Positions 23,805 through 46,157 are shown, numbered from the stretch's first letter. The stretch is DNA of 64,000 bases from Methanotrichaceae archaeon (GCA_963754945.1 CAVWIG010000017.1:96001-160000); one strand, 5' to 3'. Numbers and translations: made by a program. The notes: generated by a model from the sequence alone, not told the origin.

Positions 23805-23850
23805 TTTAGATTGAGTACCCCCGTAGCTTGTTTCGGGGTGCCTATTTGAC
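23805..23850 (-). mobile_element. Minimal palindromic IS200/IS605-derived element (46 bp)
   Basis: On + strand follows TTTAT, carries a CCCCG-TAGCTTGTTT-CGGGG hairpin and ends TTGAC, like the 150-bp relatives. Confidence 0.65.
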
Positions 23851-23864
23851 TTATTGGTGATAGA

Positions 23865-24014
23865 ATGACGATGAAAGATCCTGTCTGCAAAATGGAGCTG
23901 GATGAGAAGGAAGCGAAGTTCAAGGCCGAATACCAGGGAAAAACTTACTACTTCTGCAACCTCTCCGATAAGAAGAAGTTTGAAGCGAATCCGAAGAAAT
24001 ACCTGGAGTCCTGA
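23865..24014 (+). CDS. YHS-domain small protein 3 (49 aa; not in ORF track)
   Basis: MTMKDPVCKMELDEKEAKFKAEYQGKTYYFCNLSDKKKFEANPKKYLES; GGTGA RBS. Confidence 0.85.
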   Translation: MTMKDPVCKMELDEKEAKFKAEYQGKTYYFCNLSDKKKFEANPKKYLES

Positions 24015-24026
24015 TTGGGAGCCAAA

Positions 24027-24986
24027 ATGAAGATAGTTGTAGCAGACCCGATCTTCCTTCCTAATGATTATAGAGCCAGGTTGAGAGCCCTTGGCGAGCT
24101 TGAGGTCTACGACAGCGTGCCCTCTTCACTGGATGAGTTCATGGGAAGGATAAAGGATGCAGAGATAGTCGTAGTGGGAAGATATGGTGTTTCTGCCGAA
24201 GCATTCCGAAATGCACCTAGGCTAAAGTTGATATCCCTTTGGCAGACCGGCTACGACAACGTCGATCTGAAAGCCGCAAATGAACATGGTGTGATCGTAT
24301 CCAACGTTCCCAACTACGCCTTCGACTCCGTAGCAGAATTCACCTTCGCCCTTGCCCTCAATCTGCTCAGAAAAGTCCACATAGCTGATATGAACTTACG
24401 CAAGGGCAAGTTCAATTGGAAAGACTACATCGGCAATGAGCTTATGAGCAAGACTCTGGGAGTGCTCGGAACAGGCAATATAGGAAAAAGGGTAATACAG
24501 ATCGCTCAGGGGTTCAACATGAATGTGCTCTCAACTTCTGCTCACCCTAGCCCAGAGAAGGCAAAGAAGCTGGGGGCAAAGTTCGTTGACCTCGACACCC
24601 TGCTTTCAGAGAGCGATATTGTGACTTTGCATCTCCCGCTCACGCCAGAGACCGAGCACATGATAGGTGCCTTACAACTGGCCAAGATGAAACCAACTTC
24701 AATCCTGATAAACACTGCAAGAGGTAAAATAATTGATGAAGAGGCCCTTGTGGAAGCGCTCAGGGAGAAGAAGATTGCGGGAGCTGGCCTGGATGTCTTC
24801 GAGAAGGAGCCGCTACCTTTGGACAGTCCTCTTCTGGAGCTGGACAACGTTGTTCTTACGCCGCATATAGCCTTCCTGTCCGAGGAATCTATAGACGAAT
24901 GCACCTACGTGTGCGTAGAGAACATCGAGATGTTCGCAACAGGCCAGCCTCAGAATGTTGTTAACCCCCGCGGGCTAGCGGCATAA
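24027..24986 (+). CDS. D-isomer-specific 2-hydroxyacid dehydrogenase
   Basis: GTGNIG, INTARG, LDVFEKEP, TPHIA. Confidence 0.92.
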   Translation: MKIVVADPIFLPNDYRARLRALGELEVYDSVPSSLDEFMGRIKDAEIVVVGRYGVSAEAFRNAPRLKLISLWQTGYDNVDLKAANEHGVIVSNVPNYAFDSVAEFTFALALNLLRKVHIADMNLRKGKFNWKDYIGNELMSKTLGVLGTGNIGKRVIQIAQGFNMNVLSTSAHPSPEKAKKLGAKFVDLDTLLSESDIVTLHLPLTPETEHMIGALQLAKMKPTSILINTARGKIIDEEALVEALREKKIAGAGLDVFEKEPLPLDSPLLELDNVVLTPHIAFLSEESIDECTYVCVENIEMFATGQPQNVVNPRGLAA

Positions 24987-25002
24987 TTATGGTTGGGCGA
25001 TA

Positions 25003-25224
25003 ATGTCTAGGCGATCTCTCTTTGCAGTCAATGCGACCATGGCCATTTTTTTCCTAGCGCAGGTGGCTACAGGCATAAGACTTTGGCTTATCGATCTCAT
25101 AGGATGGAAGCAGTCCAATATATGGATGAACGTTCATCTTATCACAGGCTTCGGCTTACTTGTGCTCATCGCAATACACCTTTACATAAACCGGGAATGG
25201 ATTAAGGCGCAGTTCTCAAGATAA
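25003..25224 (+). CDS. Small membrane protein with two His-bearing helices (DUF4405-like)
   Basis: Q.ATG, W..VH...G, IHL..N..W pattern. Confidence 0.65.
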   Translation: MSRRSLFAVNATMAIFFLAQVATGIRLWLIDLIGWKQSNIWMNVHLITGFGLLVLIAIHLYINREWIKAQFSR

Positions 25225-25295
25225 AGGCCCATGCATAAAAGAAAAAAAACCTAGCCGGAGTCGACTTCGACCTCACCTAGCCGCTTCCAAGAATC

Positions 25296-26793
25296 TTATG
25301 CCTGCTGAATGCTGTTTGCTGCACCCGAGCCAGCTATCTTTATCTCCAGGACATCCCTGAAGGTCTTAGATGCGCCTGATGCAGATGCGACTATGGTTAT
25401 CCTGTAAACTCCAGAAGCAACTCTGGCCTTCCAGGTTCCAGCGTACTCATCTCCTGAGACCTGCTGCATACTCACTTTGGCAACCTCCTCGCCCTTGGAG
25501 TCCTCAATGACTGCCTCGCTCTTGAAGGTCTCAACCGCAGTTTTGCCTATGGAGCCCAGCTTTACACCTCCTTCTTTCGTGCTCGTTAGACTGCCACCAG
25601 TGTAGATAGTGATGGGTTCGCACGTTGCACATCCCTTGGTCGTGAGTTTGATCTCCTTAGACGTTGCTGAAAGCCTTGAATTCGTAGAGTTGTTTGCTGG
25701 AGTTGCATCTGTGGGTCTCACAGAAGATTCATTCGATCTGCCCTCTCCAAAGATTGCGACAATCTTGATGGGAGTGCCGGATGCCGCAGGATTCGGTTCT
25801 GCATGCACTTCTTTTATGCCTAGGTTAAGAGTGGGCTGGCTCTCCAGCCAGTTCTGCCAGGAGTAAAGCCGAGCGTCATAGCCGGTAAGAGTCAGCCCGT
25901 ACCAGACCAGCGATGCCTTCACACCAGTGTTGGTGAAGACCACTACAGGCTTATCCCTGCTCAATCCAGAGAATAGCTCCTTGAGGGCCGATTCGTTCTT
26001 GATCTTTTCATTATCAAGAATCTCATCGAAAGGTATGTTAATAGCGCGTGGTATAGAGCCTGCACTGTAGTCCGATGCTGCCCTAGCGTCCACTATCTGC
26101 GCGCCGCTGTTCTTCACATAGTCAAAGGTTGCGAACAGGTTTGCCTTGAGCTGAGGAATGTAGATCGTTCGGGATCGCACTTCAGATTTATTTTAAAACG
26201 CAATACCCCGCAGCTTGCTGCGGCTGGGATAAAGAGCATGTAACTCCAACTTAAGGATGCTTCAGATTTCGTAGAGCATTTTTATGCGTCGGCGGGAACA
26301 TGCCCCGCTGCTTGCAGCGGGGTCCGCCGACGCAACGTTGACTTGAGGTCGGCTTTCCCAAAGCAACCCAATCTTTTATGCCTCCATCTAACACCTTTAC
26401 CTTTTCGTGACCAAGGTACTTCAGAATCCAGTATACGTAAGTAGAGGTCGAAGGTCCTCCGCCACAAGGCATGCACTCACCATAGATCACAACAGAATCG
26501 TCTCTGGAGATTCCGGTATCACCAAGTATCTGCGCTATCTCTGAAACCGGTTTCATTACTCCCCCATCGTTTACAAATTTAGTGTATGGGATGCCGATTG
26601 CTCCTTGGATGTAGCTCGTAGCATTGGGGGACACATCCACCAGGACGTCTGTTCCGGAGATATTCGAAGGCGAGGCAAGCATCGATGAGATGCTTCCGGC
26701 TTCCATACCCATTGCGCCTGCGGTTAGCGCGGCCAAAAGAAAAAGTGCTGCAAAGATACAACTTAAGGCTAAATTAGATCTGACGTTTCTCAT
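25296..26793 (-). pseudogene. Secreted tandem-rhodanese protein interrupted by a 151-bp element
   Basis: Removing 26192-26342 restores one frame (...GKPTSNKSEVRSRTIY...); LDGG..DW and VDAR..DY..G.IP.A rhodanese motifs. Confidence 0.85.
26192..26342 (-). mobile_element. Non-autonomous palindromic IS200/IS605-derived element A (151 bp)
   Basis: Two subterminal CCCCG-CWGCAAGCWG-CGGGG-type hairpins; GTCAA end; ATAAA/TTTAT target; no target duplication; boundaries fixed by ORF restoration. Confidence 0.85.
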
Positions 26794-27152
26794 GATTTCA
26801 CCTATTTAACAAGATTGAACTATGTGCTTCGCAAACTGTCGATGATGAATTCGCATAGCTTGCTCGGGGGTTCCCAAATCCTCTTAAGAGGGCTTCCATA
26901 TTATTATCAATCGCCGTAGTAACACTTGTTATTGAAGCGGACATTAATCGATCGACATATAAACCTATTGAAAGGAAGAACGTTGAGAAGTTTGTTCAGC
27001 AAAAAGAAATCGGTTTCTGGCTCCCGCATACTAAAAGTAAGAGCTTGCGCCATCTCAACATTAGAGGCTAATTTATTTTGCCTTTTAATTGATGGCCTTA
27101 AGCGCTGATATTGTCCTTAAGGACCTGGTTACATCCGAATAGATACTCGACA

Positions 27153-29049
27153 TCATCTCTTCGCCACCCGCAGACCATTCATCACAGCTAGTATCTCAGA
27201 GGTCTCGTGGAAGAAGACCGCAGCAGCAACGCTCAAAATTCCGATGAGCGCAGATGGGATCATCACAGCCAGGACGAGCAACGAGAAAGCAATATTCTGG
27301 CTGCTAATCTTCCTAGCCTTCTTGCCGATATTTATTGCAAACGAAATTTTCGCTAGGTCATCAGCCATAAGCGCGACATCCGCTGCCTCAATAGCGGCGT
27401 CCGTGCCCGCAGCTCCCATAGCAATTCCCACAGTAGCCTGGGCCAGAGCAGGCGCATCATTTATTCCATCTCCCACCATGGCAACAGCGCCATATTTCTG
27501 CTCTAGCTCCTTCACAGCTTGGGTCTTTTCATCAGGCTTGAGGTTTGCCCTGATCTCATTCACACCTAACTCCTGTGAGATTGCCTTGGCTACTAAATCG
27601 CTATCACCAGTTAGCATTACCACCTTGAGCCCCATTCTATTGAGCTCCTCTATGACCTCTTTTGCCTTGGGCCTTATCTCATCTCTTATACCGATGATAC
27701 CCTCGATGCCTTCAGAGGTTCCCACGAGGATCGTGGTCTTTCCCTCGCGTCTCAGCCGCTCAATCTCGGTACCCTCGGGAATGCTCAATCCCAGCCCTGC
27801 GAAAAACTCGGGTTTGCCTGCATAAACGGTCTTACCTTCTATATTGCCGCTGACACCCGAACCTATGAGGCACGCGAAGTTTTCCACTGCCAGGGGTTCG
27901 AGTTTCATCTCCGTGGACCTTTCAACAATCGCCTGGGCCAGGGGATGCTCCGAAAGATGCTCAACGCTATAGGCCCGCCGCAGAACATCGGTCTCTCCTC
28001 CCTTCAGTGCCAGGATATCGGTAACTACTGGCTTGCCCCTGGTAAGGGTTCCCGTTTTGTCGAAGGCTACTGCCTTGATCTTGCCTAAATTCTCAAGGTG
28101 AACTCCGCCCTTAATGAGTACGCCTTTCTTTCCGGCCATTCCGATTCCTGCTGCTATGGCCACGGGAGTCGACATTACCAGAGCACAGGGCGCCGCTGCA
28201 ACCAGGAGGACGACGGCTCTTCTACCCCACTCGGATATACCGCCATCGAAGAAGAGAGAGGCTGCGACCAAGAGAGCCGCACTCAGGAGGACCAGCGGAG
28301 AATACCTATCGCCGAAACGCTCGATGAAAAGCTGAGCCTTGCCCTTCTCTTCGTGGGCCTCCTCAACCAGACGAATTATCTTTGATAAGGTGTTATCTTC
28401 GAAGGCCGTAGCGGCTCTGATTTCCAGAGCGCCTTCTCTGTTGATGGTGCCTGCAAAGACTCTCATGCCCTCGTTCTTCTCGACCGGAATGGATTCCCCT
28501 GTAACTGGAGCTTCATCAATACTGGATTTTCCTCTTTCGATTACTCCATCTGTTGGAACGGCTTCACCAGGCCTGACAACGAACAGATCTCCCACTTTAA
28601 GGTCTTTCACAGGTACAGTTACTTCTTTTCCATCGATGAGAATCCTGGCCTCCTTTGGGGCAAGGTCGAGAAGTTCCCTTATGGAGCCCCTGGTCCTGGC
28701 ATAGGTATATTCCTCCAATCCCTCTGCAGCGCTGTAAAGGAAAACCAGGAATGCTGCTTCATCCCAAATGCCCAGCAGCACCGAGCCAATAGCGGCTGCC
28801 ATCATGAGGATCTCAATTCCGACCCTCTTCTCCTCAAGAAACTCCTCGATGCCCTCTCTGGACCAGTGATAACCGCCTAGCAGGATGGCAACAATGAATA
28901 CCGCGTTCTCGGAATACGCCGTGATTAATCCCAGGTGCGCTAACCCAAATGCGGATACTGATACTGTTAGCAAACCGGAGATCAAGGCATTGCGCATTAT
29001 AAGGGTACTCGTACCATTTCCCATCAGAGATATCTTCCACTTCGCTCAT
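27153..29049 (-). CDS. Heavy-metal P1B-4-type ATPase (Co/Zn/Cd); apparent frameshift near 29001 in the N-terminus
   Basis: TGES, APC, DKTGT, SEHP, GDGINDAP, HETSE; the RBS-preceded ATG at 29049 is out of frame with the body, in-frame ATG at 29024. Confidence 0.88.
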
Positions 29050-29106
29050 TCTTGCTCTCCTTTGCATTCTAAAAGTCAATCATTTTATAATATTCAACCT
29101 TATATT

Positions 29107-29478
29107 TCAACTTTCATTGATGTGTTTTAACCCTTCATGGAAAAGCGCAACCACATGTTCATCATCGAGGCTATAGTATGCGATTTTACCTTCTTTACGA
29201 AGCTTGACTATGCGTCTATCCTTAAGAATTCTTAACTGGTGGGATATTGCCGAGTTTTCCATGCCAAGCACGAAAGATAGATCGCAGACGCACATTTCCC
29301 CGGATAACAGAGTATTTATTATTCTTAGCCGGGTAGGATCGCCCATCGTCTTAAATATCTCAGATAAGCGCTGCACTGCCTTATCGCCGAGCTCTCTCGT
29401 TTTTGCCTTTTTTACTAGCTCTGGATGTATGCAATAGACTTCACAATTTTCGTCTATACTGGTATTATGCATGACCAT
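29107..29478 (-). CDS. ArsR/SmtB-family metal-responsive repressor
   Basis: CEVYCIH, DPTRLRI, EMCVCDL, SAISHQLR, DDEHV...LKH. Confidence 0.92.
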   Translation of the reverse strand: MVMHNTSIDENCEVYCIHPELVKKAKTRELGDKAVQRLSEIFKTMGDPTRLRIINTLLSGEMCVCDLSFVLGMENSAISHQLRILKDRRIVKLRKEGKIAYYSLDDEHVVALFHEGLKHINES

Positions 29479-29496
29479 CTCCTATCCATATTAGCG

Positions 29497-29522
29497 AACA
29501 TATGAACATGTGTTCATACGTG
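29497..29522. promoter_or_regulatory. SmtB/ArsR-type operator
   Basis: TATGAACA-TG-TGTTCATA core in a 12-2-12 inverted repeat, between a TATA-like TTTAAATA on the minus strand and the repressor start. Confidence 0.8.
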
Positions 29523-29607
29523 CAACAATGTAGTGGTATTTAAAGATTTAGATTAAGGATTAAGGCGGCTTTGCAAAATAGTAGTTCGAAGAGGAATAAA
29601 AATTTAG

Positions 29608-30375
29608 TTAGATAATGCGGAATTCAGGTGAAGGTCCACCTGTTTCTGAGGCCTCCCGTTTAACTGCATTTTGCCAGCCTTTCATGAAGGTCTCCCAATC
29701 CTGGTAGTGATCCCTTAGGACGGTGCAAATATCCTCCATCATCCCGAAGGGTATTCCAACCACTACGCTGTCATCATCAAGGCCGGAATACCACGAAGAT
29801 CCATCACACCCTAGAGATACGTTCAACTCGCCCTTCAGGTAGGGAGAAACGGTGGCATCCATGCAGAACGACTGAGCCCCTGTCGTGCTGAAGGTGGACT
29901 TGACTCCCGATTTGTAAATCATTGCCTGGGTTATCCTGCGAGCCTGGATGGGAGTGCCCACAAATATCACTACGTCAGGATTGACAACCATCTTGTCCAG
30001 AGGTGCAACATAGGTCGCGACTATGCTACTTTCATCGTGAAGGAGAATGCTTTCATAGATGCTGGCGCCCGTCTCTCTGCTCTCGCATTTCATGAGTTTG
30101 TCGAAGTACAGAGATCCAGAGGATACATCCTCCGGACAGTTTACTAGGCCAAGACTTGATGCCCCGAGCTTGCATTCATGGTAATCCGCATGGGCGAGAA
30201 AGCTGTCGCCGTGCAGCCTCGCAGTCTGGATCATCTGGCAGTACATGAAAGGTCTCTCCAGGGATTCCAGATCCTTGGGGATGTCCTCCTCACGCTTGAA
30301 CAGGGCCACGCCCACAATGTTATCCTCTATTCCCAGGGCGGTCTTCATTATATCCGACATCTCTTCAAGATTCAT
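29608..30375 (-). CDS. DUF169-family protein
   Basis: YCQMI..AR, C.LG..LG, PDVVIF, QSFC.DA, SLGCDGS; GGAGG RBS before MNLEE. Confidence 0.8.
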   Translation of the reverse strand: MNLEEMSDIMKTALGIEDNIVGVALFKREEDIPKDLESLERPFMYCQMIQTARLHGDSFLAHADYHECKLGASSLGLVNCPEDVSSGSLYFDKLMKCESRETGASIYESILLHDESSIVATYVAPLDKMVVNPDVVIFVGTPIQARRITQAMIYKSGVKSTFSTTGAQSFCMDATVSPYLKGELNVSLGCDGSSWYSGLDDDSVVVGIPFGMMEDICTVLRDHYQDWETFMKGWQNAVKREASETGGPSPEFRII

Positions 30376-30499
30376 CGCAAAACCTCCTGAAGAATTACGT
30401 CGAGATGGCATTTCTTCCTTTCGTTTACTGTCTCGAAGTTTAGGAAAATTTAATAACAATAGTTACCATAGATATTCTAGATTTAATGGAGGTTAGTAT

Positions 30500-30850
30500 A
30501 TGAATAAAGCAGAGTGCAATCTTTCCTTGGATGAGCTTCTGGAATTTGAGGGCGTAAGGGAAGCGGGGATATTCAGCCCTGAGGGAAAGCTTGTAGAGTA
30601 TAAATCCAAAGTTGGTATGCCAAAAGAGATGGCCCAGATGACCGCCAAGTTCTGCGGGGCTGTAAACACAATGTTCGATGCCCTGGCTAGCGCCTACACA
30701 GATCTCTACAAGATGAACTGGGTACCTCAGCACAACTGGATATACAGCGGAGGCGACTGGACTGTTATAATCTCTGGCAATAGGGGCGTCTTCGTTGAAA
30801 CCTCCGAGGCCGATTTAGAGAAGCTCCTTAAAGCCCTGGGTGTGTGTTAA
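30500..30850 (+). CDS. Roadblock-like hypothetical protein (DUF2173-like)
   Basis: L.ELL..EGV..AG.FS.EGKL..Y, A.FC, W.P...W.YSGGDW. Confidence 0.7.
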   Translation: MNKAECNLSLDELLEFEGVREAGIFSPEGKLVEYKSKVGMPKEMAQMTAKFCGAVNTMFDALASAYTDLYKMNWVPQHNWIYSGGDWTVIISGNRGVFVETSEADLEKLLKALGVC

Positions 30851-30948
30851 TTTTCCGTAAACTAGATGTCAAGACCTAGCTAGCCGCTTGCTAGCTAAAC
30901 CATATTTAGTCAGCCCGTTAGCATTTCAGGCAAAAGAGGTTAACTCAA

Positions 30949-31287
30949 ATGGATGCCAGTAATCTCAATTCAAAAGAAGGATTCGGATGGGCCTATAAGA
31001 TAGCGTTGCTCTGTATTTTGGCTATAGTTGCATTTTACCTGATTGAGGAGCACAGAGCACATCTCATAGCCTATTCGGGCACTATATTATTCGTAATCTT
31101 CATTCTACTACACCTCTTCATGCATAGTGGGCATGGAGGACATGGTGGCCACGGAGATCACGGAGGTAGTGATGGAGCCCATCATGAGCACGACAGCGGA
31201 AGAGAGGAAATGCCTGAAGCCGATAAAGCAGGAGAACCTATAGACGCGCACCAGCATGAGAACAGACAGGTGGAGAACAAGCTATGA
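30949..31287 (+). CDS. DUF2933-like membrane protein with His/Gly-rich tail
   Basis: FYLIEEHRAH, LHLFMHSGHGGHGGHG; overlaps the next gene's start. Confidence 0.75.
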   Translation: MDASNLNSKEGFGWAYKIALLCILAIVAFYLIEEHRAHLIAYSGTILFVIFILLHLFMHSGHGGHGGHGDHGGSDGAHHEHDSGREEMPEADKAGEPIDAHQHENRQVENKL

Positions 31288-31952
31288 CCGGAATGCCCAT
31301 GAGCGAGGCACCAGCATATGGCCTCTGGTCTTTGGTCGTAATCAACTCCCTGATATTCATAATCTTCGCCTTCAGCTTTACAAGACCTAAAACAAAACGT
31401 GACTGGCGCTCATTAGGGGGGTTCGCAGCTTTCATAGTTGCACTGTTCACAGAGATGTACGGCTTTCCTCTGACCATTTATCTGCTCTCGGGCTGGCTGG
31501 CAAGCCGCTATCCTGGGCTGGACCTGTACTCCCACAACTCCGGGCACCTCTGGAGCGATCTACTGGGCTCAACAGGGAACCCCCACCTGGCCCCGATTCA
31601 CATAATCAGCGATATCATGATCCTGGGTGGGCTGTATCTCCTGGCCTCGGCATGGGAAGTGCTGTACAAGGCGCAGAAGAACCATACGCTTGCGACGACA
31701 GGGCCTTATGCCCACGTCCGCCACCCTCAGTACGACGCTTTCATACTGGTCATGCTCGGATTTCTGGTTCAGTGGCCCACAATAATTACCTTGATCATGT
31801 TTCCCATACTAGTCTGGATGTACAAGAGACTTGCAGGCCAGGAGGAAAAAGAGATCCTTGCGGAATTTGGGGAGGAGTATTCCAAATACGCTGCTGTTAC
31901 TCCCGCGTTCATTCCGCGATTTGGATCAAAATCGAATAAATCCGCTGAATAA
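31284..31952 (+). CDS. Isoprenylcysteine carboxyl methyltransferase-family membrane protein
   Basis: ALFTEMYGFPLTIY, GPYAHVRHPQY, EE...AEFGEEY..Y...PAF. Confidence 0.88.
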   Translation: MTGMPMSEAPAYGLWSLVVINSLIFIIFAFSFTRPKTKRDWRSLGGFAAFIVALFTEMYGFPLTIYLLSGWLASRYPGLDLYSHNSGHLWSDLLGSTGNPHLAPIHIISDIMILGGLYLLASAWEVLYKAQKNHTLATTGPYAHVRHPQYDAFILVMLGFLVQWPTIITLIMFPILVWMYKRLAGQEEKEILAEFGEEYSKYAAVTPAFIPRFGSKSNKSAE

Positions 31953-31982
31953 GAGGTGGTGGTGTACCTCAAAACTGGTATA

Positions 31983-32036
31983 GTCAAAACTGCGACAGCG
32001 CACCCCGCTGCAGAGAAGCGGGGTATTACGATAAAA
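31983..32036 (+). mobile_element. Minimal palindromic IS200/IS605-derived element (54 bp)
   Basis: GTCAAA...GCGCACCCCGCTGCAGAGAAGCGGGGTATTACGATAAAA then ATAAA; both ends match element B. Confidence 0.8.
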
Positions 32037-32125
32037 ATAAATATAACACTTTAAGATATTAAAAATGTGCCTTTGGCGAGAAAAAGGATAATGGTAGGGA
32101 ACCTGAAGGCGATCCTCTTTGCAAT

Positions 32126-32489
32126 CTACTTATCACTCTTGAGCCAGGCCCAAGCCTTGTCGATATTGTCAGAGTGGAAGAATTTTACGTTACGAGCATA
32201 GAAGGGTCTGGCCAGGTGTGATATCCACTTCTCCCATGTCCTATTGCCGACTATTGCCAGTTTTTGGATCTTTTTATGAAACTCAATTCCAAATTCCAGA
32301 TCCTGTAACCAGGTCTCCAATTTTTCCCATTCGAAATCGGTCAGATCAATCAACATGCATACGTTTCCTTCCTTTTCTACTAAATCTCTGACCTCAGGCT
32401 CTAACTTCAGGTAGTTCGGTAGCCGTTATCACTCCAATTGCTTTATAGCCTACTACATTTCCCGAACTTTCAGATAATTTTTCGATCAT
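32126..32489 (-). pseudogene. SpoIIAA-like (STAS/SEC14) protein with frameshift near 32416
   Basis: MIEKLSESSGNVVGYKAIG.IT / YLKLEP...MLIDLTDF...KLAIVG..W...AWAWL. Confidence 0.75.
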
Positions 32490-32680
32490 TTCGTATCCCT
32501 CTAATATACTTAGCTATAACTTGTCGAAACTATTTAGTGTTGTCGCAATATATTCTGTTGCGCCCTATGGTGTTGTAGCATAATGGTATAGTTGATTGAT
32601 TTTTGATAGAACTTTCAGCACTTTCAAAGCAAAATTCAATCAAGGCAATAGTAAGTAAGATGAAGGTTCAAAAAAGATTA

Positions 32681-33002
32681 ATCGGCAACGTTATGATTCT
32701 GGGCGGGTTGTCTGTTAGCCACATCCTGGGACGTGCTATACAAGGCGCAGAAGAACCATGTGCTGGCAACGACTGGGTCATATGCCCACGTCCGTCACCC
32801 TCAGTACGACGCCTTCATACTGGTCATGCTGGGATTCCTTGTGCAGTGGCCGACGATTCCAACCGTGATCATGTTTCCCATTCTCGTATGGATGTACAAG
32901 AGACTCGCAAGCCGGGAAGAAAAAGAGATTCTCGCGGAATTTGGGGAGGAATATTCCAAATACGCTGCGATAACGCCTGCATTCATTCCGCGGTTTAGAT
33001 AG
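32681..33002 (+). pseudogene. Partial second copy (3' half) of the ICMT-family gene
   Basis: Collinear with about 31604-31922; lacks the 5' half and has a frameshift at its start. Confidence 0.8.
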
Positions 33003-33016
33003 ATGTTAGGCTTGGC

Positions 33017-33280: not shown

Positions 33281-33373
33281 AGTTTCACCTCCGTATCGTA
33301 TATGTAATGTATGTATATGATGTACAAGATTTAAAAACTTTTCTTAATGCGATCACAAATATTGAGGGAAATC

Positions 33374-36624: not shown

Positions 36625-37587
36625 TTGGCAATGAGCTTGTTGCTAGGCCCCCTCATTTTTATCTTGGTCGTGGTAATCCCTTCCGGAGGGACCGATTACA
36701 CTTCTATGCAAAGTGGTCCTCATCTCATCATCTCCTCAATAAACGGGACACTGGAGATAGACAGGCCAGGAACAATCTGGTTCGATATTAAGAACGATGC
36801 CAATGCATCTGCTGTTGGCCAGAACGCGTCGGGCCAAAGGTTTCCTGCCTGGTTACAACCGGGTTATGGAACCAACGTCTCAGATGCCATTGGTGTTTCT
36901 GTGGAGCTACTGCCAAAAGATGCTATGTTCGAGATGCTCACAGGTCCTCAGCTTGCTGGATCGCTCGAAAGCGGGAAAAACCGGACTGTCGAGTTTAACT
37001 TGCGAACAGGCGGGACGGCAGTGCCGGGAGTCTATCCCGTTGACTTATTGGTTACATATCGCAGACTCTCGGGGGTGCAGACATCTGGTGATCCTGAACA
37101 GCCGGATGTGGCCTTTCAATATGCAAATGTTTCTGAAACTATTCCGGAGGAGGTGAATGTAGTTCAGGGGCCAAGGATACTAGTCGATGAGGTCAAGGAC
37201 GGTGTACCAGCAGGCACAGAATCAGAGTTAAACCTCATCTTAGCCAATAGTGGCGATCTCCCTGCAACAAATCTTCGAGCCAAAATTTTATCAAAGGCGC
37301 CTTTCAGCTCTGCTGAAGGAGCGTTACTTCTTGGAAGTCTAGCTCCTGGACATTCCGCCTTAGCCAAGTTCATGGTCAAGACAGAGAACACGACAGTCCC
37401 TGACACTTATGCTCTCCAGATCAGCGTCGACTACCTGGATGGCAAGACCCTACAGAAGGAGGAGCTGGCAGCCATCGTACCAGTGAAGAGCCAGTCGGAG
37501 ACTGGGTCTGTGCTTGCTCCTGCAGCGGGAGCACTGGTTCTGATATCCGCTGCATATGTCCTCGCCAGGAAGTACCAGGGAGGGTGA
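36625..37587 (+). CDS. COG1361-type S-layer/Ig-like surface protein
   Basis: Signal peptide, repeated GSL..G...F.L/V...PG.Y beta modules, C-terminal TM helix plus basic residues. Confidence 0.7.
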   Translation: MAMSLLLGPLIFILVVVIPSGGTDYTSMQSGPHLIISSINGTLEIDRPGTIWFDIKNDANASAVGQNASGQRFPAWLQPGYGTNVSDAIGVSVELLPKDAMFEMLTGPQLAGSLESGKNRTVEFNLRTGGTAVPGVYPVDLLVTYRRLSGVQTSGDPEQPDVAFQYANVSETIPEEVNVVQGPRILVDEVKDGVPAGTESELNLILANSGDLPATNLRAKILSKAPFSSAEGALLLGSLAPGHSALAKFMVKTENTTVPDTYALQISVDYLDGKTLQKEELAAIVPVKSQSETGSVLAPAAGALVLISAAYVLARKYQGG

Positions 37588-37677
37588 GGAAGAAAAAGAA
37601 AGAGACGATGGTGAGGAAGAAAAAGAGTGCATAGGCTGCAAAAGCGGAGCTGGCCAGCCAAGAAAAGTGACTGCCAA

Positions 37678-38916
37678 TCAAGCTGTCAGCCGTTCGAACT
37701 GAGCCTGGGCTCTTTCAAGAATCATCTCCTCGCCCGGGATGACACCGCCTGTCATAAGGGCGCGGCCATTGACAATTGTTGTGTCTACTCCGCCTGCCAT
37801 GCTATAGATCAGGTGGGAAATGATGCTCGTCTCCGGTGTAAACCAGGGCTTCTTGAGATCAATCAGGGATAGATCAGCCAGAGCTCCCTCTCGCAGTCCT
37901 AAGTCGAGCCCAAAGGCCTTGTAGGCGTTTTCCGTCGCGATCTGCCATACCTCCTCTGCCAGCATGACATCGGGCCTTCTGCAGGCTGTCTTCTGGACGA
38001 TCGCCATGGTCTTCATCTCCTCGAAGAGGCTTAGGTTGTTGTTGCTCGAAGCCCCGTCTGCCCCGAGGCACACGTTGGCTCCTGCCTTCAATAGGCTAAC
38101 TACCGGGGCTATTCCCGCAGCCAGCTTAAGATTGCTAACCGGGCAGTGGGCTACGTTAACCCCGCGCCGTGCGAGTAACGTTATGTCCTTTTCAGACAGC
38201 CAGACGCAGTGAGCGGCCACCAATCTATTGCTCAGGAGCCCGAGAGCGTCCAGGTACTCCACCGGGCTTTGGCCGTGCTTTTTGATGGACTCCTCCACCT
38301 CCCCCTTCGTCTCCGACAGGTGGGTATGAAGCATTGCATCGTACTTCTCCGCCAGATCACTGGCGCGCAGCAGAGTCTCCTCCGAGCAAGTGTAGATGGC
38401 ATGGGGGCCAACAGCGGGATGGATCAGATCGTCTCCGCTCCAGTCTTTGAGAAACGACTCTGCCTCGACCTTCAACTCGGGCCGAGCATCGAAGAGCACT
38501 CCGGATAGGAATGCCCGAAGACCCATCTCCTTTGTCGCAGCCGCAGTCTCATTCATGAAATAGTACATGTCGTTGTAGCAGGTTATGCCGAACCTGATCA
38601 TCTCTAAGCAACCAAGCTTTACTCCCCAGCGTATGTCCTCTGACGTAAGCCGGGCCTCCATGGGCCAGATCTTCTCCGTGAGCCAGGGCATGAGGGCCAT
38701 GTCGTCAGCGTAACCACGGAAGAGGGTCATGGCAAGGTGGGTGTGAGAGTTTACGAGGCCGGGAATCGCCAGCTTGCCGTGACCATTGATGGTTTCATCA
38801 TCGTTTTCGTCCTTGAGGTCGCGACCTATCTTGGAGATCCTGTTCCCCTCGATCAGGATGTCGCGGCCTTTAAGGAGAGCGCAGGACTGCAGAAGCGAGA
38901 CGTCTTTGATCAGCAT
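37678..38916 (-). CDS. 5'-methylthioadenosine/S-adenosylhomocysteine (5'-deoxyadenosine) deaminase-like amidohydrolase
   Basis: HTH, GPHAIYTC, HLSET, AAHCV, SNLKL, DG.SSNN. Confidence 0.88.
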   Translation of the reverse strand: MLIKDVSLLQSCALLKGRDILIEGNRISKIGRDLKDENDDETINGHGKLAIPGLVNSHTHLAMTLFRGYADDMALMPWLTEKIWPMEARLTSEDIRWGVKLGCLEMIRFGITCYNDMYYFMNETAAATKEMGLRAFLSGVLFDARPELKVEAESFLKDWSGDDLIHPAVGPHAIYTCSEETLLRASDLAEKYDAMLHTHLSETKGEVEESIKKHGQSPVEYLDALGLLSNRLVAAHCVWLSEKDITLLARRGVNVAHCPVSNLKLAAGIAPVVSLLKAGANVCLGADGASSNNNLSLFEEMKTMAIVQKTACRRPDVMLAEEVWQIATENAYKAFGLDLGLREGALADLSLIDLKKPWFTPETSIISHLIYSMAGGVDTTIVNGRALMTGGVIPGEEMILERAQAQFERLTA

Positions 38917-39047
38917 AGGCTACTAGCAACGAAGAGATGAATATTAAAATTATCGAAATGGTGGACGATGGAATAGAAACTGAGAAATAGGATGCATACC
39001 GGACATCGCTAGGCTTAAAAGGCATGGACATAATGGAATGCAAATGA

Positions 39048-39153
39048 GCTGAGGTAGCCAAGCGGCCTACGGCGCTGGTCTTGAGGTCCGAAATCTTGGA
39101 CATGAAAACCAGTGGTGCATCGCACCTCGTGAGTTCAAATCTCACCCTCAGCG
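39048..39153 (+). tRNA. tRNA-Ser(UGA) with a 21-nt intron (39086-39106)
   Basis: GCTGAGG/CCTCAGC acceptor stem, G discriminator, long variable arm, GTTCAAATC T-loop, anticodon TGA 39082-39084, bulge-helix-bulge at 37/38, TTAAAA box upstream. Confidence 0.9.
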
Positions 39154-39414
39154 TAATTTTATTGGTAACTTGCTCTTGAGTCCTAGGCCGAGGAGTTATT
39201 GCCGCCCTGGCTCCAGGCAAGTCGCGTCTAAATCGCCGCCATATTCTGACTGATGCCCAGAAATACTGTCCGATGGCCGGAGTGCGTGTAACTTGCAAAA
39301 ATCTCCTCCAAAATAGAGCCCTGTACCGACTAGGCTCGAAACTCCGTGAGGCAAACTCGATATTCCATTAGTTTATGGGCACGGATTGGGCCCGTTGCGC
39401 GATCTCGATTAACC

Positions 39415-40941
39415 GTACTTGCTCAATATTACGTTGAATTCCCCAATCGAGTGAGTGCATGGACCAAAAATTATTAATACATATATCTAAAATATTTTGT
39501 TTGTGCCAGATATCATACACGAGGCCATAATCAACCTCGATGTAGACAAGATCAACTTCGACGATAAAGAAGCGATGAAAGAATTGATCCTCCAGCTTCT
39601 AAGCACAATAGAGCAATTAGCCCAGTCAAATCAAGAACTCCGCAAAGACAATCAACAGCTAAAGGATGAAATAAACCGCTGAAAGGTGAGAAAGGCCGTC
39701 CTAAAATACTGCCGGACAATCCTGAATACCAGGCTAATGTGCCGAAGGAAAAACCCAAAAAATGGCATAAAGATAGCAAGAAACCAAAGATAAAAATCGA
39801 CAGGACAGAATACATTAAAATTGATAAATCGATTCTTCCACATGATGCCAAGCATAACGGCTATAGACGGGTCATAAAGCAGAACATAAAATTTGAAACC
39901 GACAACGTGGAATATTGGTTGGAACGCTACTATTCGCCGTCCCTGAAAAAGACCTATGAAGCAGAACTTGCCGAGTCCCTTAAGAACACGGAATTTGGAA
40001 GTCATCTGAAAGCATTCATCGCTTACCTCTACTATGCGGGAAGGGTTACTGAGAATAGGATCCACAAGATCCTAGAAGAGATCGGCATAATAATCTCGGA
40101 AGGCGAGATCTCAAACATACTGACCAAGGAAAAGAGCAATGCATATGCGATAGAGAAGCAGGCCTTATTTGAAACTGGTGTGAATCGGGCTGATTATCTT
40201 AACATTGATGAGACAGGCGCGAGGCATAAAGGCAATAACCATTATTTGCACGTTGTCTGCAACAAGTTCTTTAGTGCTTTCTTTATCAGGCAAACCAAAG
40301 GAAGTGATACAATCAGACATTTCTTTGGGCTAAATGATGAGGAGCAGATAGATTTACCCATTATCTCGGATGATGCCGGGCAGTACATAGATGTATCGTC
40401 ACACCATGCTCTGTGCTGGATACATGAAATACGACACTACAAAAAGATGAATCCTTTTCTAATTCATCATAAGTCGGTTCTTAATATGTTTTTAACTGAG
40501 CTTTGGAAGTTCTATGAATTGCTTACACAATATAAGGAGAATCCTAATAAAATTATGAGTAAGTATGTCCAGGAGAGGTTTGATTCGATATTCTCGACAG
40601 TAACTGGTTACGGGACGTTGGATGATCGCATTACAAAGACTAAGAAAAAGAAACAAGAGTTGTTGCTGGTGTTGGATTTTCCAAATGTTCCGCTTCATAA
40701 CAATCTCGCAGAGATAGCTGTGCGAGAAGGTGTGATCAAGAGAAAAATCAGTTATGGAACAAGAAGTGAACTCGGCAAGCTTGCATGGGAAAACATGCTC
40801 TCTATAATCGATACTTGCAGGAAGCTCGGAATAAGCTTTTACAAATATCTTTATGATATATTCTCAGATAGTTATTCTATGCCAAAGTTATCCGATCTCA
40901 TTCTCAGTGCTAGTAAAATCAACTGATTATTGAGCAAGTAC
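39415..40941 (+). mobile_element. IS66-family (single-ORF, ISBst12-like) element
   Basis: TIRs GTACTTGCTCAATA / TATTGAGCAAGTAC; near-perfect 8-bp duplication GATTAACC / GATTAAAC. Confidence 0.85.
39497..40926 (+). pseudogene. IS66-like transposase with frameshift near 39679
   Basis: Coiled-coil ORF (..EINR) continues as LKGEKGRP in another frame; IDETG, ISDDA, LCWIH, HNN.AE motifs. Confidence 0.8.
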
Positions 40942-41505
40942 GATTAAACCACGATCGGCTATTCTGTAGAACCTGGAGCGTAAAGGTCCCCGGGTAATGA
41001 GGTCAGAAGTGTATTTATAAAAATTACGAGGCTTCCAAGCTGGCCTCGACTTTTGTATATTGAGCTATGTATAACCAATAGGAATTGCACATACATGCCG
41101 GGGCCCAGCAAGTATGCCAGAGTTAGGCCAATGTTTATTGATCTGAGTTAGCTGTTAGGCGGTCGTCATTCGACCCAATGTAAGACATCTCTTATGATGC
41201 ACCACCTTTGCGACTTATTCTCTGTGTTTTCTCCCAGCACCCAGTATTTGTATTTTTTATCAAGCGATCCGTATTCCTCTTCCATCTTGAGCCAATAGTC
41301 AAGAAACATTAAGGATGCATCATCGCAATTCTTGGATACGACATAAACACACATAATCTTATACGTGTCAGCAGGCTGCAAGATCGCTACTTTATAGAAA
41401 GGATGGAGAAGGGTCAGAGATGTTCCTGTTTCGGCTGTTGTCAGAAGGACATCGGCGTTTGTCAGATTGAAGAACTGATTGGGGTGGTCCAGGGGAATTA
41501 CTTTA

Positions 41506-42790
41506 GAGAGTTTCGAAAAACTAATCAATCGAAATACTTATATACTATTAATACTATAATATAATGCATGAGGACTCTCATTGATTTTGCCATTCGAGCA
41601 GAATATGCTCGAGTAAAAGCCCTCGGAGATGATCTATCCGAGATCGGATCGTTGATCAATTGGGAGCGTTTCAGATTTTTGGAACCATTGATATACAAAA
41701 ATAAAACTAGCCGCGGAGGTCGTCCGAACATTGACATCGTGATTATGGTGAAAGCTCTCGTAATTCAGCATTGGTTTGGTCTAACAGATCCAGAACTGGA
41801 GCGACAGGTTGCGGATAGGATCTCTTTTCGTATTTTCCTTGGCACCACTGAAGTAATTCCTGATTTCAGCACAGTTTGGCTATTCCGTGAACGTTTGATT
41901 AAGTGCGACGTATACGATGATCTTTGGAATGAGCTTCAAAGGCAGCTCGATGAGATGGGGTTTACTGTAAAGAATGGCACTATCCAGGATGCAACCTTCA
42001 TAACTTCGGACCCAGGTCGGAAGAGGAACAAGAAAGACGAGCAAGGCGGGGACAAAAAGGAAGGTCAAGATTCCGAAGCCACCAGTACGAGCCTGAATCA
42101 GGAGTTTGATAAAGAGCTAATTGGTATTTCAAATAATATTATTGATGACAAGGCCAAACCACAGAGACTCGAAGAAGAGCCAATAAATGAGGGAAGTTGG
42201 GCAAAAAAGGGTGTCAAATCCTTTTTCGGATATAAAGGTCATATCTCAATCGATACCAATTACCACCTTATCAGATATTTTGAGACTACAACTGCTTCTG
42301 TACACGATAGTCAGGTAGATCTTGGAATTGAAGGGCTACCACGTTACGCCGATAAGGGATATGATGGTGCAAAAACTCGAGGATATGATGCAGCCATGAA
42401 AAAAGCTACAAGAGGTCACAAGCTTGGAATCATAGATCTTCTGAGGAATAAGAGAATCAGTAAAACGCGATCGCACATCGAAAGATGCTTCGCTGTTATG
42501 AAGCGGGGGCATAAGGGAGCACATGTTTATGTAACAACTGTCGCAAGAGCTGGAGTAAAATTCATGATGAATTCGGTCGTTTACAACCTGGAACAGTTGA
42601 AATATTTAGTGCATAAACAAACAGCCTAGCGGAAGCTCTCTAAAAAAGCGCAAAAATTAGAAACAACAAGGTAAATTGAAATCTAATAAGCCAATTTAGG
42701 GGTGAAATATGCTAAAAAACCACTATAAAGATTGAAAATATTAACGCAAGAATTTAAGGCTTCATTAACCAACACTAAATCGAAACCCTC
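41506..42790 (+). mobile_element. IS5-family element, copy 3
   Basis: Same TIRs; 4-bp target duplication TTTA. Confidence 0.95.
41568..42629 (+). CDS. IS5-family DDE transposase
   Basis: Translation identical to copies 2 and 4. Confidence 0.93.
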   Translation: MRTLIDFAIRAEYARVKALGDDLSEIGSLINWERFRFLEPLIYKNKTSRGGRPNIDIVIMVKALVIQHWFGLTDPELERQVADRISFRIFLGTTEVIPDFSTVWLFRERLIKCDVYDDLWNELQRQLDEMGFTVKNGTIQDATFITSDPGRKRNKKDEQGGDKKEGQDSEATSTSLNQEFDKELIGISNNIIDDKAKPQRLEEEPINEGSWAKKGVKSFFGYKGHISIDTNYHLIRYFETTTASVHDSQVDLGIEGLPRYADKGYDGAKTRGYDAAMKKATRGHKLGIIDLLRNKRISKTRSHIERCFAVMKRGHKGAHVYVTTVARAGVKFMMNSVVYNLEQLKYLVHKQTA

Positions 42791-44889
42791 TTTAGCCTGG
42801 GGGAAGATGGTGCCAACAGCCTTGTAATATTCTGACCCCGCGGCGATGGCGATCTTAAGGTCTTTCATCTTTACAACATTATCAAGCTTCTCGAAGTCAT
42901 TTTTTCTGTAATCCTCGGTTACTAAGGCTAGATGAAGGTCAATATAGGGTGATGTAAACCTGCCCATTCCTATCATTCCCGGAACCAGAGGTACACCGGC
43001 CATAATTATGTCACAGCTACCGTTGTTGACCGAGTCGTACTCAGTTCTCCGATTTACTGGCACGAATTCTATCCTGGATACATTCAGGATCTCTGCCAGA
43101 TCATAGGCCATATGGATATCATAGCCTACTAGCTCGCCGTATTTATTTAAGAAGGCAAAAGGCATGATATCCGGAACATATCCAACCCGCAGGACATTTC
43201 TGCTCTTAATCTTCGCCATTAGGTTGCCGTTTTCCAGGGCATTCGGTTTATATGGAACTCTAGGGACATCAGAGAAGTTTTTGTAGACCTTAGTCTCGAC
43301 GATCTGATCGATACTCTTTCCATTGGTGTCCAAGGGCATCTTCATGCTCAAAATGGTCTCATACCCCTGTGAAGAATTACCCAGCATAGTGGCGAACCAC
43401 AGCCTGAGTCCAAGGACAACAGAAGATAGAATCACAAGCACTATAATTATCGAGAAAAGAGCCCTCCTAAATCTTAGCCCGCCGCACCCTGTGAGGAAAG
43501 CTGTGCAGATGGTGGAGAAGGAAAAGATGGCCATGCATGTCAGAGATGTGGCGAAGTAAATGGTGAACGGGTTGGATATGATAAATAGCTGCATAGCATC
43601 TGAAGGTAGATGGGTCATTTGAAGAAGGAATTGAAGGGCTAGCTTGGAGGAGCCAAAGAAGCTGGGCACACCAACCACAGCTAGATTGACCTGATCTTTA
43701 AGCCCAAGTGGATTGTTGTAGTACCAGCCTGTGAACAGAACAAATAGCAGGACCATGAAATCCCCCATTGGCGGAAAGCTGTAGGCTAGAGGGACTAAAA
43801 CTCCGCTGTACGACCTAGCCTTCTCCTCGGTCCGAGGCTCCTTAAACAGGTTAGCAACGCCCTCTGATAATAAGGGCAAAGTGATGAAGACCAGGGCTGT
43901 GGAAAATGCCAGTATGACCGCTTTATTTGCAGCCGAAAGTATTTCTCTATAACCAAAGGGGGTAAGGCTGTACACTAACAGAGGTAGAACAAGAAGAATC
44001 AATAAAACTGAAAGAACTACTGCGGATATTAAGTAGACCTGGATTTGAAGGAGCTGCGTTAAGGTGATGGATCCTGTCGTGTTTGCCGTGATAACAAAAA
44101 TGCCCAAGGGAGCGATCTTTATCAGCAGGTTAGTTATTTTAGAGAGAGTAGAAGAGAGACCTTTAAGCAGTTCAACAAAAGGCTTGTTCCTTTCATCCCC
44201 AATTAAGGCAAATCCGATCAACAGGCAGAATAGAACGATGCCCGGCATGAGCCCTTCCGAAAGGGATTTGAACGGGTTGGATGGAATGAAAAGTTCGATA
44301 AGATCGGTCCCATTTGCAGTCGAGAGCTGAGTGGTGCTGAAAAAAGAGGTGTTTTGCACATAGGGAAATGCGAACTGCATGAAGGAGAAGATTGCCACTC
44401 CTAAAGACCACATCATCAGCATGATCAATGCTGCTTTTTTGAGGAATTCCTTAGCATCAGCCTGATTAATGCTGCCGATACCTGTGATAATAAAGATCAC
44501 GACTGAAGGTAAGACAGTAACCTGCATCAGCTTGATGAAGGTCGTCCCTATGGGAGCCAGAATATGAGCTCTTTCCCCAAAGAACAGTCCGCAGATGGCT
44601 CCTGCGATGAGGCTTGCGAAGACCTGTGCTGCAAAGCTTAGCTTGGGTGAATCCATCTTGCTGCCTCAGAATGTCTTATCTCAAGACGAATTGCTTGCAA
44701 CCTTCGCCCCACTCAGGGAAGGCGCCGGACACATCTAATATTTAGTTACAATAGACCTGCCAGCTAACGAATCCAGATTGCAATAAGGTCTACTAGTTCA
44801 GTCGAGATCATTGCTCAATGAATATTGAGTTTACGGTCCCCCCAAAAAAGCCATACTCATAAGTTCTGGAAGCCTAGTGCACCATAACA

Positions 44890-46157
44890 TTAATTTTGCA
44901 AATTAATATAATGCCTGTTTAGCTTTAATCTTGCATCATTCTTCGTGAATTTCCATCTTACAGTAGTTTTTTTTGCGTTACGTTCTTGTGCCCACACCGA
45001 AGCCTCTTTGGTTAAAGTATCGATGTCTCCAATCCGACGATCGAGGCATTGCTTCGATAGGGCTGAGAGTTCTATCTCAGCCATGTTGAGCCAGCTACCT
45101 TTCTTTGGCGTATAATAATATTCGAACTCCTTAGCCAGCTCAAACGCCTCTTCAGGCGCAAAAGCATTATAAAATGAGCCTGAAGTATGCGTATTGAGAT
45201 TATCCTGGACCAATCGAATGGATTCTACACCTGGATATTGCTGGGTAAGTTCTTTCATGAAATGGGCGTAGTCCACCCTTGTCCTGTGCTCCATGACACG
45301 AATCATTCTTTTTCCTGCATGAAGATCAAAAGCAATAAGGATGCAACATGTCCCGTTACGGACGTATTCATAATGCACCTTCTTCGGACTGCCTGGTTTC
45401 ATGGGTATAGGCACTAAGACATCGCCTATCAGTTGGCATGGCCTCTCGTCGAAACAAACCACAGGATGCCTCGGATCATATGGTTGCTCGTACAGAGTTA
45501 ATACATTTTCCATGTTCCAGATATATTCGCTCGTCATGCTCCCTATGCACCATCGCTGTTTGAGCCATGGCTTTATTTTTATCGTAATACCCCGATGCTT
45601 GCATCGGGGATAAAGGGCATCCGTGTCCGACTTAGGAATTGATCAGATCGATTTAGTATCAACTTCATGCGGCGGCGCCTCGCATGCCCCGCCTGCTTGC
45701 AGCGGGGTGCGCCGCCGCCGTTTGACTTCATTTTTTTTAACGCTCTGCAAACGCTCATTCCTGAGATCGAGTCCACTTCCCCCAGCTCAACAAGCTTGTC
45801 GGCCAATAGATTCAGCGTCCATCTCGATCTGCCTTCAGGCGGATCTGAGCAAGCAATGCCGGTCAGTTTAGCCTCAACTCGTGCATCTATCTTCGGAGGC
45901 GCTCCACTGCGAGATCTTTCATTCAATGCAGATTCCAGGCCACCCTCGAAATATCTATTTCTTATCCTCACTATTGTCGTTCTGCTCGCCTTCAATGCAT
46001 CAATGATCTCCGCATCGGATTGCCCTCCATCGGCCAGGAGCAGTATTCTTGCGCGAGTTAAACTCCTTGCAGACGACTTCCCACGACGGATGTACTGGTT
46101 CAACTCTTCTCGTTCTTTCTCTTCCAGTTTCACACAGAATATTGTTTTTCTTGCCAC
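44890..46157 (-). pseudogene. IS630 transposase (OrfA/OrfB joined by an A8 slippery site), interrupted
   Basis: HTH OrfA (RARILL, GRSRWT), DDE OrfB (FDE, QDNL, SWLNMAE); LKKNEIKPW restored after removing 45577-45726 and a -1 shift. Confidence 0.88.
45577..45726 (-). mobile_element. Non-autonomous palindromic IS200/IS605-derived element B (150 bp)
   Basis: GTCAA end, two CCCCG-..GCAAGC..-CGGGG hairpins, ATAAA target, no duplication. Confidence 0.85.

Follow-up and report, generated by a model that had tools for sequence, protein, structure and literature searches.

The DNA analysed here is a 64,000-nt stretch (the window) from the genome of a Methanotrichaceae archaeon, located at positions 96001-160000 of contig C17 (C17:96001-160000). 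The genome is a 2.97-Mb draft in 54 contigs, with 48% GC and a completeness of 87.7%, and its relatives are Methanothrix-family archaea. Four short elements in the window (e1 to e4), which carry hairpins but no gene, are the subject of this analysis. They very probably represent palindrome-associated transposable elements (PATEs), relatives of an insertion sequence (IS) of the IS200 group that lies elsewhere in the genome and encodes the transposase TnpA.

Four elements and their boundaries

An initial annotation, made from the sequence alone, had located the four elements and listed their motifs, and both are as it described (Table 1). Inspection of the sequence also confirmed that terminal inverted repeats (TIRs), a target duplication and an open reading frame (ORF) are absent from e1 to e4. 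The annotation had, however, read the elements from a GTCAA start. The meaningful, biological orientation is the reverse and is used throughout this text: a TTTAT target, the left end, and then a right end finishing TTGAC. On this top strand all four elements have TTTAT directly on the 5' side and a ...TTGAC end, which is GTCAA on the other strand. Hairpins had been described near both ends of each element; this is correct for e2 and e4, but e1 and e3 contain one hairpin each. In e2, the left hairpin has an imperfect stem (CCCCGCAGC..GCTGCGG-CT-GGG). Single-strand DNA folds of the four elements are more stable than those of shuffled sequences, with z values of -2.2 for e1, -4.7 for e2 (computed on e2 minus its first base), -3.2 for e3 and -4.1 for e4. 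Left-end and right-end profiles reveal no fifth copy of the family in the 64-kb window.

The annotation had also proposed that two boundaries are fixed by the restoration of host genes. For e2 this is the case. Deletion of its 151 nt fuses two rhodanese-domain ORFs (298 and 184 aa) into a 452-aa frame, and deletion of 152 nt does not. In addition, the empty allele that the annotation had suggested looking for in reads is present in a public metagenome contig of 217 nt, which links position 26191 to 26343 and omits exactly the 151 nt of e2. The contig differs from the flanks at 4 positions and therefore comes from a related strain. It was found in one of the four public metagenome runs with which the locus was compared; in the others (runs X2-X4) coverage is confined to the multi-copy element and is uninformative on the e2 locus.

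For e4 the evidence is of a different kind. This element lies between the helix-turn-helix (HTH) and DDE ORFs of an IS630-like element, and because the host is such a two-ORF element, no frame is restored: deletion of 150 or 151 nt lengthens none, and frame restoration was replaced as a test by paralogous empty sites. Two probes, the 300 nt to the left of e4 and the 300 nt to its right, were compared with the genome; each has matches at about 23 further positions, and in 23/23 of these copies without e4 a single base, T, lies between the flanks. The empty site reads ...GGCTTTAT-T-TCATTTT (TTTAT-T). Thus, 150 nt have been inserted without duplication, although the e4 boundary is ambiguous by a single T, since either of two T's may belong to the element. 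With the empty sites of e2 and e4, boundaries and scarless insertion are proven for these two elements. The IS630-like element (HTH_32 plus DDE_3) is itself present in at least 24 near-identical copies (99-100% over the 300-nt probes) and is the most abundant IS noticed in this genome.

Hairpins of this type could, in principle, have a structural or regulatory role in the host, as terminators or protein-binding sites, and could be spread by duplication rather than by transposition. The elements are indeed stable, GC-rich hairpins, and e1 and e3 are intergenic. The probability of this explanation is, nonetheless, close to negligible: e2 splits the rhodanese gene and e4 splits the IS630-like element, with exact empty alleles for both, the flanks of family copies are unrelated except for the motif T-N-A-T, and an element with a transposase gene has the same, identical ends. 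A short AT-rich sequence that borders e3 immediately outside its left end (window 32034-32070) is found again at C28:87408-87444 (92% identity) and in a same-genus genome (89%), and may be another short repeat or a shared promoter region.

The T-N-A-T motif was defined from left junctions in the genome, which were collected by a script with six types of leader. Of the 32 junctions found, 31 were scored; the remaining one belongs to a 76-nt repeat that stands solo, with no PATE. TTTAT is present at 20 of these (against a background of 0.0015 per position), ATTAT at 5, TTGAT at 4, and TTCAT and CTTAT at one each. Consequently, a "fixed" TTTAT target, as originally claimed, does not describe the family. 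TTTAT is strongly preferred, and the constant feature is T-N-A-T, which occurs at 31/31 scored junctions (TTAT 26, TGAT 4, TCAT 1). TTGAT is the target of ISDra2.

Two junctions are of the head-to-tail type, with a left end placed immediately after a right end (..TTGAC). The first connects two IS copies in a related genome (L017:1972-2060); in the second, in a public contig (run X2, at window position 26339), the right end is of the e2 type and the left end of the e4 type. These junctions may reflect use of the element's own TTGAC end as a target, or they may be circle-like junctions.

Table 1. Positions of the window elements, their parts and hosts, and of damaged copies of the related IS. 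Positions refer to the window unless a contig or locus is named.
Feature	Position	Strand	Remarks
TTTAT target of e1	23800..23804	+	sequence 5' of e1
e1, decayed single-hairpin (terminal-only) mini, 46 nt	23805-23850	+	left leader, hairpin, right tail
e1 hairpin, two mismatches	23819-23838	+	right tail of e1 ends TTTGAC
Tandem-rhodanese gene split by e2	25296..26793	-	ORFs 25296-26180 and 26251-26793
TTTAT target of e2	26187..26191	+	sequence 5' of e2
e2, two-hairpin PATE, 151 nt	26192-26342	+	based on copies, empty allele, frame restoration, fold
e2 left hairpin	26206-26228	+	
e2 outer GC stem	26286-26295 with 26324-26333	+	
e2 guide CATG	26299-26302	+	
e2 right hairpin	26303-26322	+	
e2 cleavage tetranucleotide TGAC	26339-26342	+	
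e3, single-hairpin (terminal-only) mini, 54 nt	31983-32036	-	e4-type left leader; right tail ends TTTTGAC
e3 hairpin	32003-32023	-	
TTTAT target of e3 (plus strand: ATAAA)	32037..32041	-	
IS630-like element hosting e4	44890..46157	-	HTH_32 ORF 45579-46157, DDE_3 ORF 44890-45537
TTTAT target of e4	45572..45576	+	sequence 5' of e4
e4, two-hairpin PATE, 150 nt	45577-45726	+	ends TTTGAC
e4 left hairpin	45590-45609	+	
e4 right hairpin, within outer GC stem	45687-45707	+	
Frameshifted IS200 copies	C4:1356, C12:5132, C15:22147, C28:79213		
Mutator/IS256-type ORF in the C29:34000-37000 locus	1083-2276 of the locus	-	

The tnpA-bearing parent and its family

A search of the genome for both ends, which had been recommended as a check, yielded counts of the copies and a parent with tnpA. 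At about a dozen places, a match to the left end and one to the right end are separated by about 600 nt. They delimit an IS200-type element of 592-593 nt with a single ORF of 155 aa (tnpA; a probable ATG start is at residue 6), without tnpB, and with ends identical to those of the PATEs. This parent is present in 12 copies, 6 of which have an intact tnpA frame. Among the 11 uninterrupted copies of the main type, five are identical and intact, a sixth (C46) is also intact, one (C17:178k) is broken, and four are frameshifted. The remaining copy, within C29:34000-37000, is broken by the gene of a Mutator/IS256-family transposase (PF00872, E=9e-103). A second subtype contributes two more copies, with a damaged tnpA (C21 and C22). 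The four frameshifted copies (on C4, C12, C15 and C28) are identical and share one inserted G, a +1 frameshift that removes the C-terminus with its Tyr. Since this one dead variant occupies four different sites, it provides direct evidence for mobilization in trans.

The assignment of TnpA is based on several comparisons. The protein matches PF01797 (Y1_Tnp, E=1.2e-32) and scores 131 bits with the NCBIfam equivalog model NF033573 (transpos_IS200), whose cut-off is 55. It also aligns, at E=1e-14 to 1e-19, with solved TnpA structures (2EC2, 2XM3 from ISDra2, and 2A6M from IS608), and in these alignments the HUH motif (DHIHIF) is in register, as is the C-terminal Tyr (..nYvEmQ). The parent is placed, as judged from its sequence, in the IS200 group of the IS200/IS605 family by its Y1/HUH TnpA, by the lack of a TIR, and by a subterminal hairpin near each end, the two having the same orientation. 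Insertion without duplication, a left end set in one orientation against a short (4-5-nt) target and, at the sequence level, the pairing of guide and cleavage site (see below) agree with this placement. In turn, e2 and e4 have what is expected of PATEs: they carry the parent's ends, are too short for a transposase, occur in multiple copies, and have neither inverted repeats nor a duplication. The proposal that the elements are non-autonomous IS200/IS605 derivatives served by a TnpA encoded elsewhere is supported by these findings, given a 12-copy parent with the same ends and target and with 6 intact genes.

A different use of a Y1 transposase would apply if the elements were repeats of the repetitive extragenic palindromic (REP) or bacterial interspersed mosaic element (BIME) type, handled by a domesticated REP-associated tyrosine transposase (RAYT), and not derivatives of a mobile IS. 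RAYTs are typically single-copy genes flanked by REPs. The single-hairpin elements do look like REPs, and TnpA scores weakly, below the threshold, with the RAYT model NF047646 (24 bits, cut-off 80). However, it passes the IS200 equivalog model, and its gene occurs 12 times, between its own left and right ends, with each copy at a different T-N-A-T site; moreover, the elements interrupt genes and another IS. The RAYT explanation is therefore exceedingly unlikely, and the IS200-derived nature of the elements is retained below.

When the four elements are compared with the genome by BLAST, 96 matches are obtained. The e2-type PATEs comprise 8 copies at 98.6-100% identity plus 3 diverged ones (88-93%), the e4-type PATEs comprise 4 copies at 98.7-100%, and 3 copies (C14, C39 and C42) make up a third type with about 80% identity to e4. 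In total, the genome contains about 18 two-hairpin PATEs and about 11 single-hairpin forms (minis). Hairpins of the form CCCCG-N6-16-CGGGG number 57 in the genome, and, by a reading of the listing, 47 of these are within this family. Together with the excess of TTTAT at left ends and the fold z values, this exceeds what chance would produce. The near-identical copies together with the polymorphic empty allele indicate recent activity, in line with the idea of an active family, and the near-identical e2-type and e4-type copies also count as evidence for mobilization in trans. Beyond this genome, ends like those of e3 are present in 22 of 41 sampled genomes of the archaeal family and in 11 of 16 genera (this genome included).

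Some copies have additional features. Three diverged e2-like PATEs (C17:77375-77566, C24:34837-35051 and C42:32463-32682) share an extra 5' extension of 76 nt, which begins directly after TTTAT or CTTAT and is also found solo, without a PATE, at C39:14294. This unit may have arisen by capture of a flank via an upstream T-N-A-T, or it may be a nested repeat. Another PATE-like hairpin family is present at C39:63287, C49:13972 and C49:14156; its hairpin is CCCCGACCTTCAGGTCGGGG and its right end finishes GCAGTTTGAT, and one copy directly adjoins an e2-type PATE.

The initial annotation had further suggested an IscB or TnpB partner. PATEs can be partners of an RNA-guided nuclease if they encode an omega-RNA, or if they share ends or the transposon-adjacent motif (TAM) with a TnpB or IscB element that helps to retain them. 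TTTAT is the published TAM of the TnpB2 of ISGst2, TTCAT is that of the IscB of ISGst5, and ISGst PATEs are reported often to encode omega-RNAs (PMC10055086). Thus, the TAM that the annotation had named is a real one, although it does not apply to the family here, and the same is true of the GTCAA start that it gave for IscB-type members: a 5'-GTCA terminus has been reported for one ISC element. The genome also contains 10 TnpB genes, and some of the corresponding right ends finish ..GGTAGTTGAC, the last five bases of which are the same as those of the PATEs.

In other respects, however, the TnpB elements are distinct. There is no tnpB inside the parent or inside the element at any of 80 related loci, and a search of these loci with the 10 TnpB proteins gave one partial match, which lies outside the IS. 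The left-end and right-end profiles match IS copies, PATEs and minis, but no TnpB locus (E<=1). The hairpins of the TnpB elements differ (CCCCGCCCTTTAGGGCGGGG or ..CATGTCCTTCAGGGCATGG), their left flanks are ..TTTTAAC.. and TAATCT.. instead of TTTAT, and their right ends are ..AGCRTTCAC or ..GGTAGTTGAC. The PATE right end is about 70 nt, which is shorter than a typical omega-RNA scaffold. No IscB was found in the 87.7%-complete genome with NF040563; a search with PF14239 gave no match, and control genomes were silent as well. A scan of the window with Rfam found no family at the gathering score except one tRNA elsewhere. Consequently, a nuclease partnership is very unlikely, and the family is tnpA-only.

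Two details of these searches concern other features. Five TnpB genes lie within 17 kb at C31:1-17900 with right ends finishing ..GGTAGTTGAC, together with one TnpA of 186 aa at C31:4382-4744, and a second TnpB type (twice on C18, and on C44 and C49) has right ends that finish ..CCCCGCCCTTTAGGGCGGGGAGCRTTCAC. The tRNA match, at window 39048-39153 on the plus strand, covers 106 nt compared with a model of 71 positions and is probably an intron-containing archaeal tRNA.

Probable guide pairing, single-hairpin forms and weight of the evidence

In IS608, four guide bases located 5' of each hairpin foot read the cleavage sites; A-2 is unpaired and contacts T-4 (PMC3201880). At the left end of the elements here, the corresponding guide is AATA and the target is TTAT; at the right end, the guide is CATG and the element finishes TGAC. 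Relatives of TnpA, 46-77% identical, were collected from 80 loci, mostly in Methanothrix-family, Methanoperedens and Methanosarcina genomes, and the guide bases of 6 own and 6 related right ends were read by eye from the sequence. Among 41 distinct related right ends, CATG accompanies TGAC in 25, CATA accompanies TGAT in 11, CGCA, CAAA or CAGA accompanies TGAT in 3, and GATG accompanies TCAC in 2. In 41/41, the first guide base is the Watson-Crick complement of site base -3 (C:G 39, G:C 2) and the fourth is that of site base -1 (G:C 27, A:T 14), whereas the T of site position -4 and the A of position -2 never vary. In an Altiarchaeales relative AATA is found with TTAT at both ends.

The right hairpin is also nested within a GC-rich outer stem. 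Among 44 right ends, 7 of 10 outer pairs have changed on both sides, 91.7% of the cells are paired, and a covariation as high as that observed is obtained in 0 of 500 shuffles. Once this stem is formed, 7-10 nt are left up to the cleavage point, close to the IS608 distance of 10 nt. The order of parts on the top strand is then as follows: T-N-A-T; a leader of 12-14 nt ending AATA; the left hairpin; the core; CATG plus the right hairpin within the outer stem; and 7-10 nt ending TGAC.

From this arrangement, and by analogy with IS608 and ISDra2, a mechanism can be proposed. Dimers of TnpA would bind both hairpins on single-stranded DNA, and the four guide bases 5' of each hairpin foot would pair with the cleavage tetranucleotides, AATA with TTAT on the left and CATG with TGAC on the right. 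As in other members of the family, the top strand would be excised as a circle and the donor precisely resealed. The circle would then be pasted 3' of another T-N-A-T without duplication, presumably on the lagging strand. Intact copies of TnpA would move both the PATEs and the frameshifted IS copies in trans.

In the minis (e1, e3 and about 9 others, 42-60 nt long), a single hairpin lies between a left leader and a right tail. Each has a different sequence, and several stems are decayed; Methanothrix-family genomes contain more such minis. Most likely, they were made by deletion between the two near-identical hairpins. In 7 parsed cases the single guide is AATA, which mismatches TGAC at both Watson-Crick positions. 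Because this guide does not match the right site, the minis have probably lost their mobility, and e1 and e3 would be immobile relics. One mini (C17:68007-68062) is apparently present at the same site and with the same flanks in a same-genus genome (L106) and is thus old.

It is rather unlikely, though worth considering, that the minis are instead a mobile, REP-like class in their own right and not dead deletion scars. Two minis in one related genome (G004, L109 versus L135) differ by one base and have different flanks and targets, which is compatible with mobility or with repeated identical deletions, and 2 of the 11 minis here end TGAT, a better fit to the AATA guide. If these elements do move, an IS200 TnpA can excise and insert a one-hairpin element even when its AATA guide is mismatched to a TGAC site.

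Taken as a whole, the evidence leads us to regard e1 to e4, with a probability of roughly 0.93, as PATEs, that is, as internally deleted, gene-less derivatives of the tnpA-only IS200-group IS, mobilized in trans. Several observations weigh against this reading or limit it. The first concerns e1, which is statistically marginal: its scores are weak with the left-end profile (E=0.77) and with a profile of 9 other minis (E=0.34), and its membership rests on an ordered combination of motifs. The matches of e3, by comparison, are strong (left end E=5e-11, right end E=5e-10). For neither e1 nor e3 was a syntenic empty site found by searches with flank DNA in 30 relatives; these gave coding-region matches alone, at 66-94% identity, and no syntenic junction. 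In addition, one e2-type copy, located at the end of a contig (C53:1-148), is scrambled at its right end, and 8 odd bases separate its leader from TTTAT; this anomalous left junction is probably an assembly artefact at a repeat. Given the draft state of the genome, the copy numbers are lower bounds.

The position of the right boundary is another such point. In this genome, TGAC at the right end is followed by T in 40/40 cases, so that the element could extend rightwards by one more base, or TTTAT-T could be the target. That the conserved T is the last base of the element was considered and judged less likely: among 43 right ends in other genomes, 36 have T at this position, 5 have C and 2 have A, and the guide pairing fits the TGAC register alone. 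The C or A in 7 of 43 relatives favours an end at TGAC, without constituting proof for this genome. Since the TGAC register alone fits the guide pairing, the end at GAC chosen in the initial annotation is favoured. This TnpA may require a T at +1, where the 5'-phosphotyrosine link would be attached. Finally, the covariation of guide and site reflects about 3-4 independent changes and is supportive rather than a statistical proof, and single-strand "peel and paste" with guide pairing is inferred from homology and covariation.

Comparison with known systems

The elements are offshoots of an ordinary IS200-type element and belong to a well-known kind of selfish DNA. Their recognition is of value for annotation: they split genes, such as the tandem-rhodanese gene, and other ISs, and would otherwise be read as unexplained structured repeats. 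They also mark recent genome change in an environmentally important lineage of methanogens. Much about such elements is already published, including PATEs and their IS200/IS605 origin, scarless insertion 3' of a 4-5-nt motif, mobilization in trans, terminal-only forms and a TTTAT target. In the literature on Methanothrix/Methanosaeta, no paper on this particular IS200/PATE family was found (ISfinder was outside the comparison).

The closest description is that of the PATEs of Haloquadratum walsbyi (Dyall-Smith et al. 2011, PMC3119063). Like the elements here, these are too short for a transposase, have no TIR and no duplication, carry near-terminal palindromes that are similar at both ends, and are related to IS200/IS605. 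They likewise have a short targeting oligonucleotide (4-6 bp) on the 5' side and fall into homogeneous (>90% identical) and heterogeneous subfamilies. "Terminal-only" forms of about 52 bp, produced by deletion of the core between the palindromes, are the counterparts of e1 and e3; that a 52-bp PATE might be mobile was raised by these authors as a possibility and left open. However, the partners in H. walsbyi are described as mostly TnpB (IS1341-type), with intact tnpA rare, whereas here the parent is tnpA-only and several copies are intact. H. walsbyi is also a haloarchaeon and the present host a Methanothrix-family methanogen, and the sequences are unrelated apart from their architecture.

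In Geobacillus stearothermophilus, the ISGst elements (Meers et al. 2023, PMC10055086) provide another parallel, in which one TnpA serves many non-autonomous elements that share its ends. TTTAT, the preferred target here, is the TAM of ISGst2, and gene-less, PATE-like copies are present in both. In contrast, the ISGst families include tnpB or iscB and omega-RNAs, and the family here has neither. REP/RAYT systems (PMC3333891, PMC8266576) resemble the minis in having single GC-rich hairpins, a conserved 5' tetranucleotide and a Y1 HUH enzyme. They differ from the situation here, where the transposase is a multi-copy IS200 enzyme and the minis are few, each different, with several decayed stems.

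For the mechanism, IS608 and ISDra2 serve as the models (PMC3201880). The features in common are a Y1/HUH TnpA, subterminal hairpins and precise excision, with a left cleavage site that lies outside the element and serves as the target and a right site formed by the last four bases of the element. Unlike IS608 and ISDra2, the family here lacks tnpB. Its target is TTAT/TTTAT, compared with TTAC in IS608, and the distance from the left site to the hairpin is 12-14 nt, compared with 19 nt. At the right end, 13-23 nt separate the site from the inner hairpin, and 7-10 nt separate it from the co-varying outer stem of 4-11 bp; the distance in IS608 is 10 nt. The IS608 rule of guide-site pairing thus appears to hold, through compensatory changes, across a distant archaeal IS200 clade. 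The guide covariation and the co-varying outer stem are small mechanistic additions, and the picture of IS200/IS605 transposition is unchanged.

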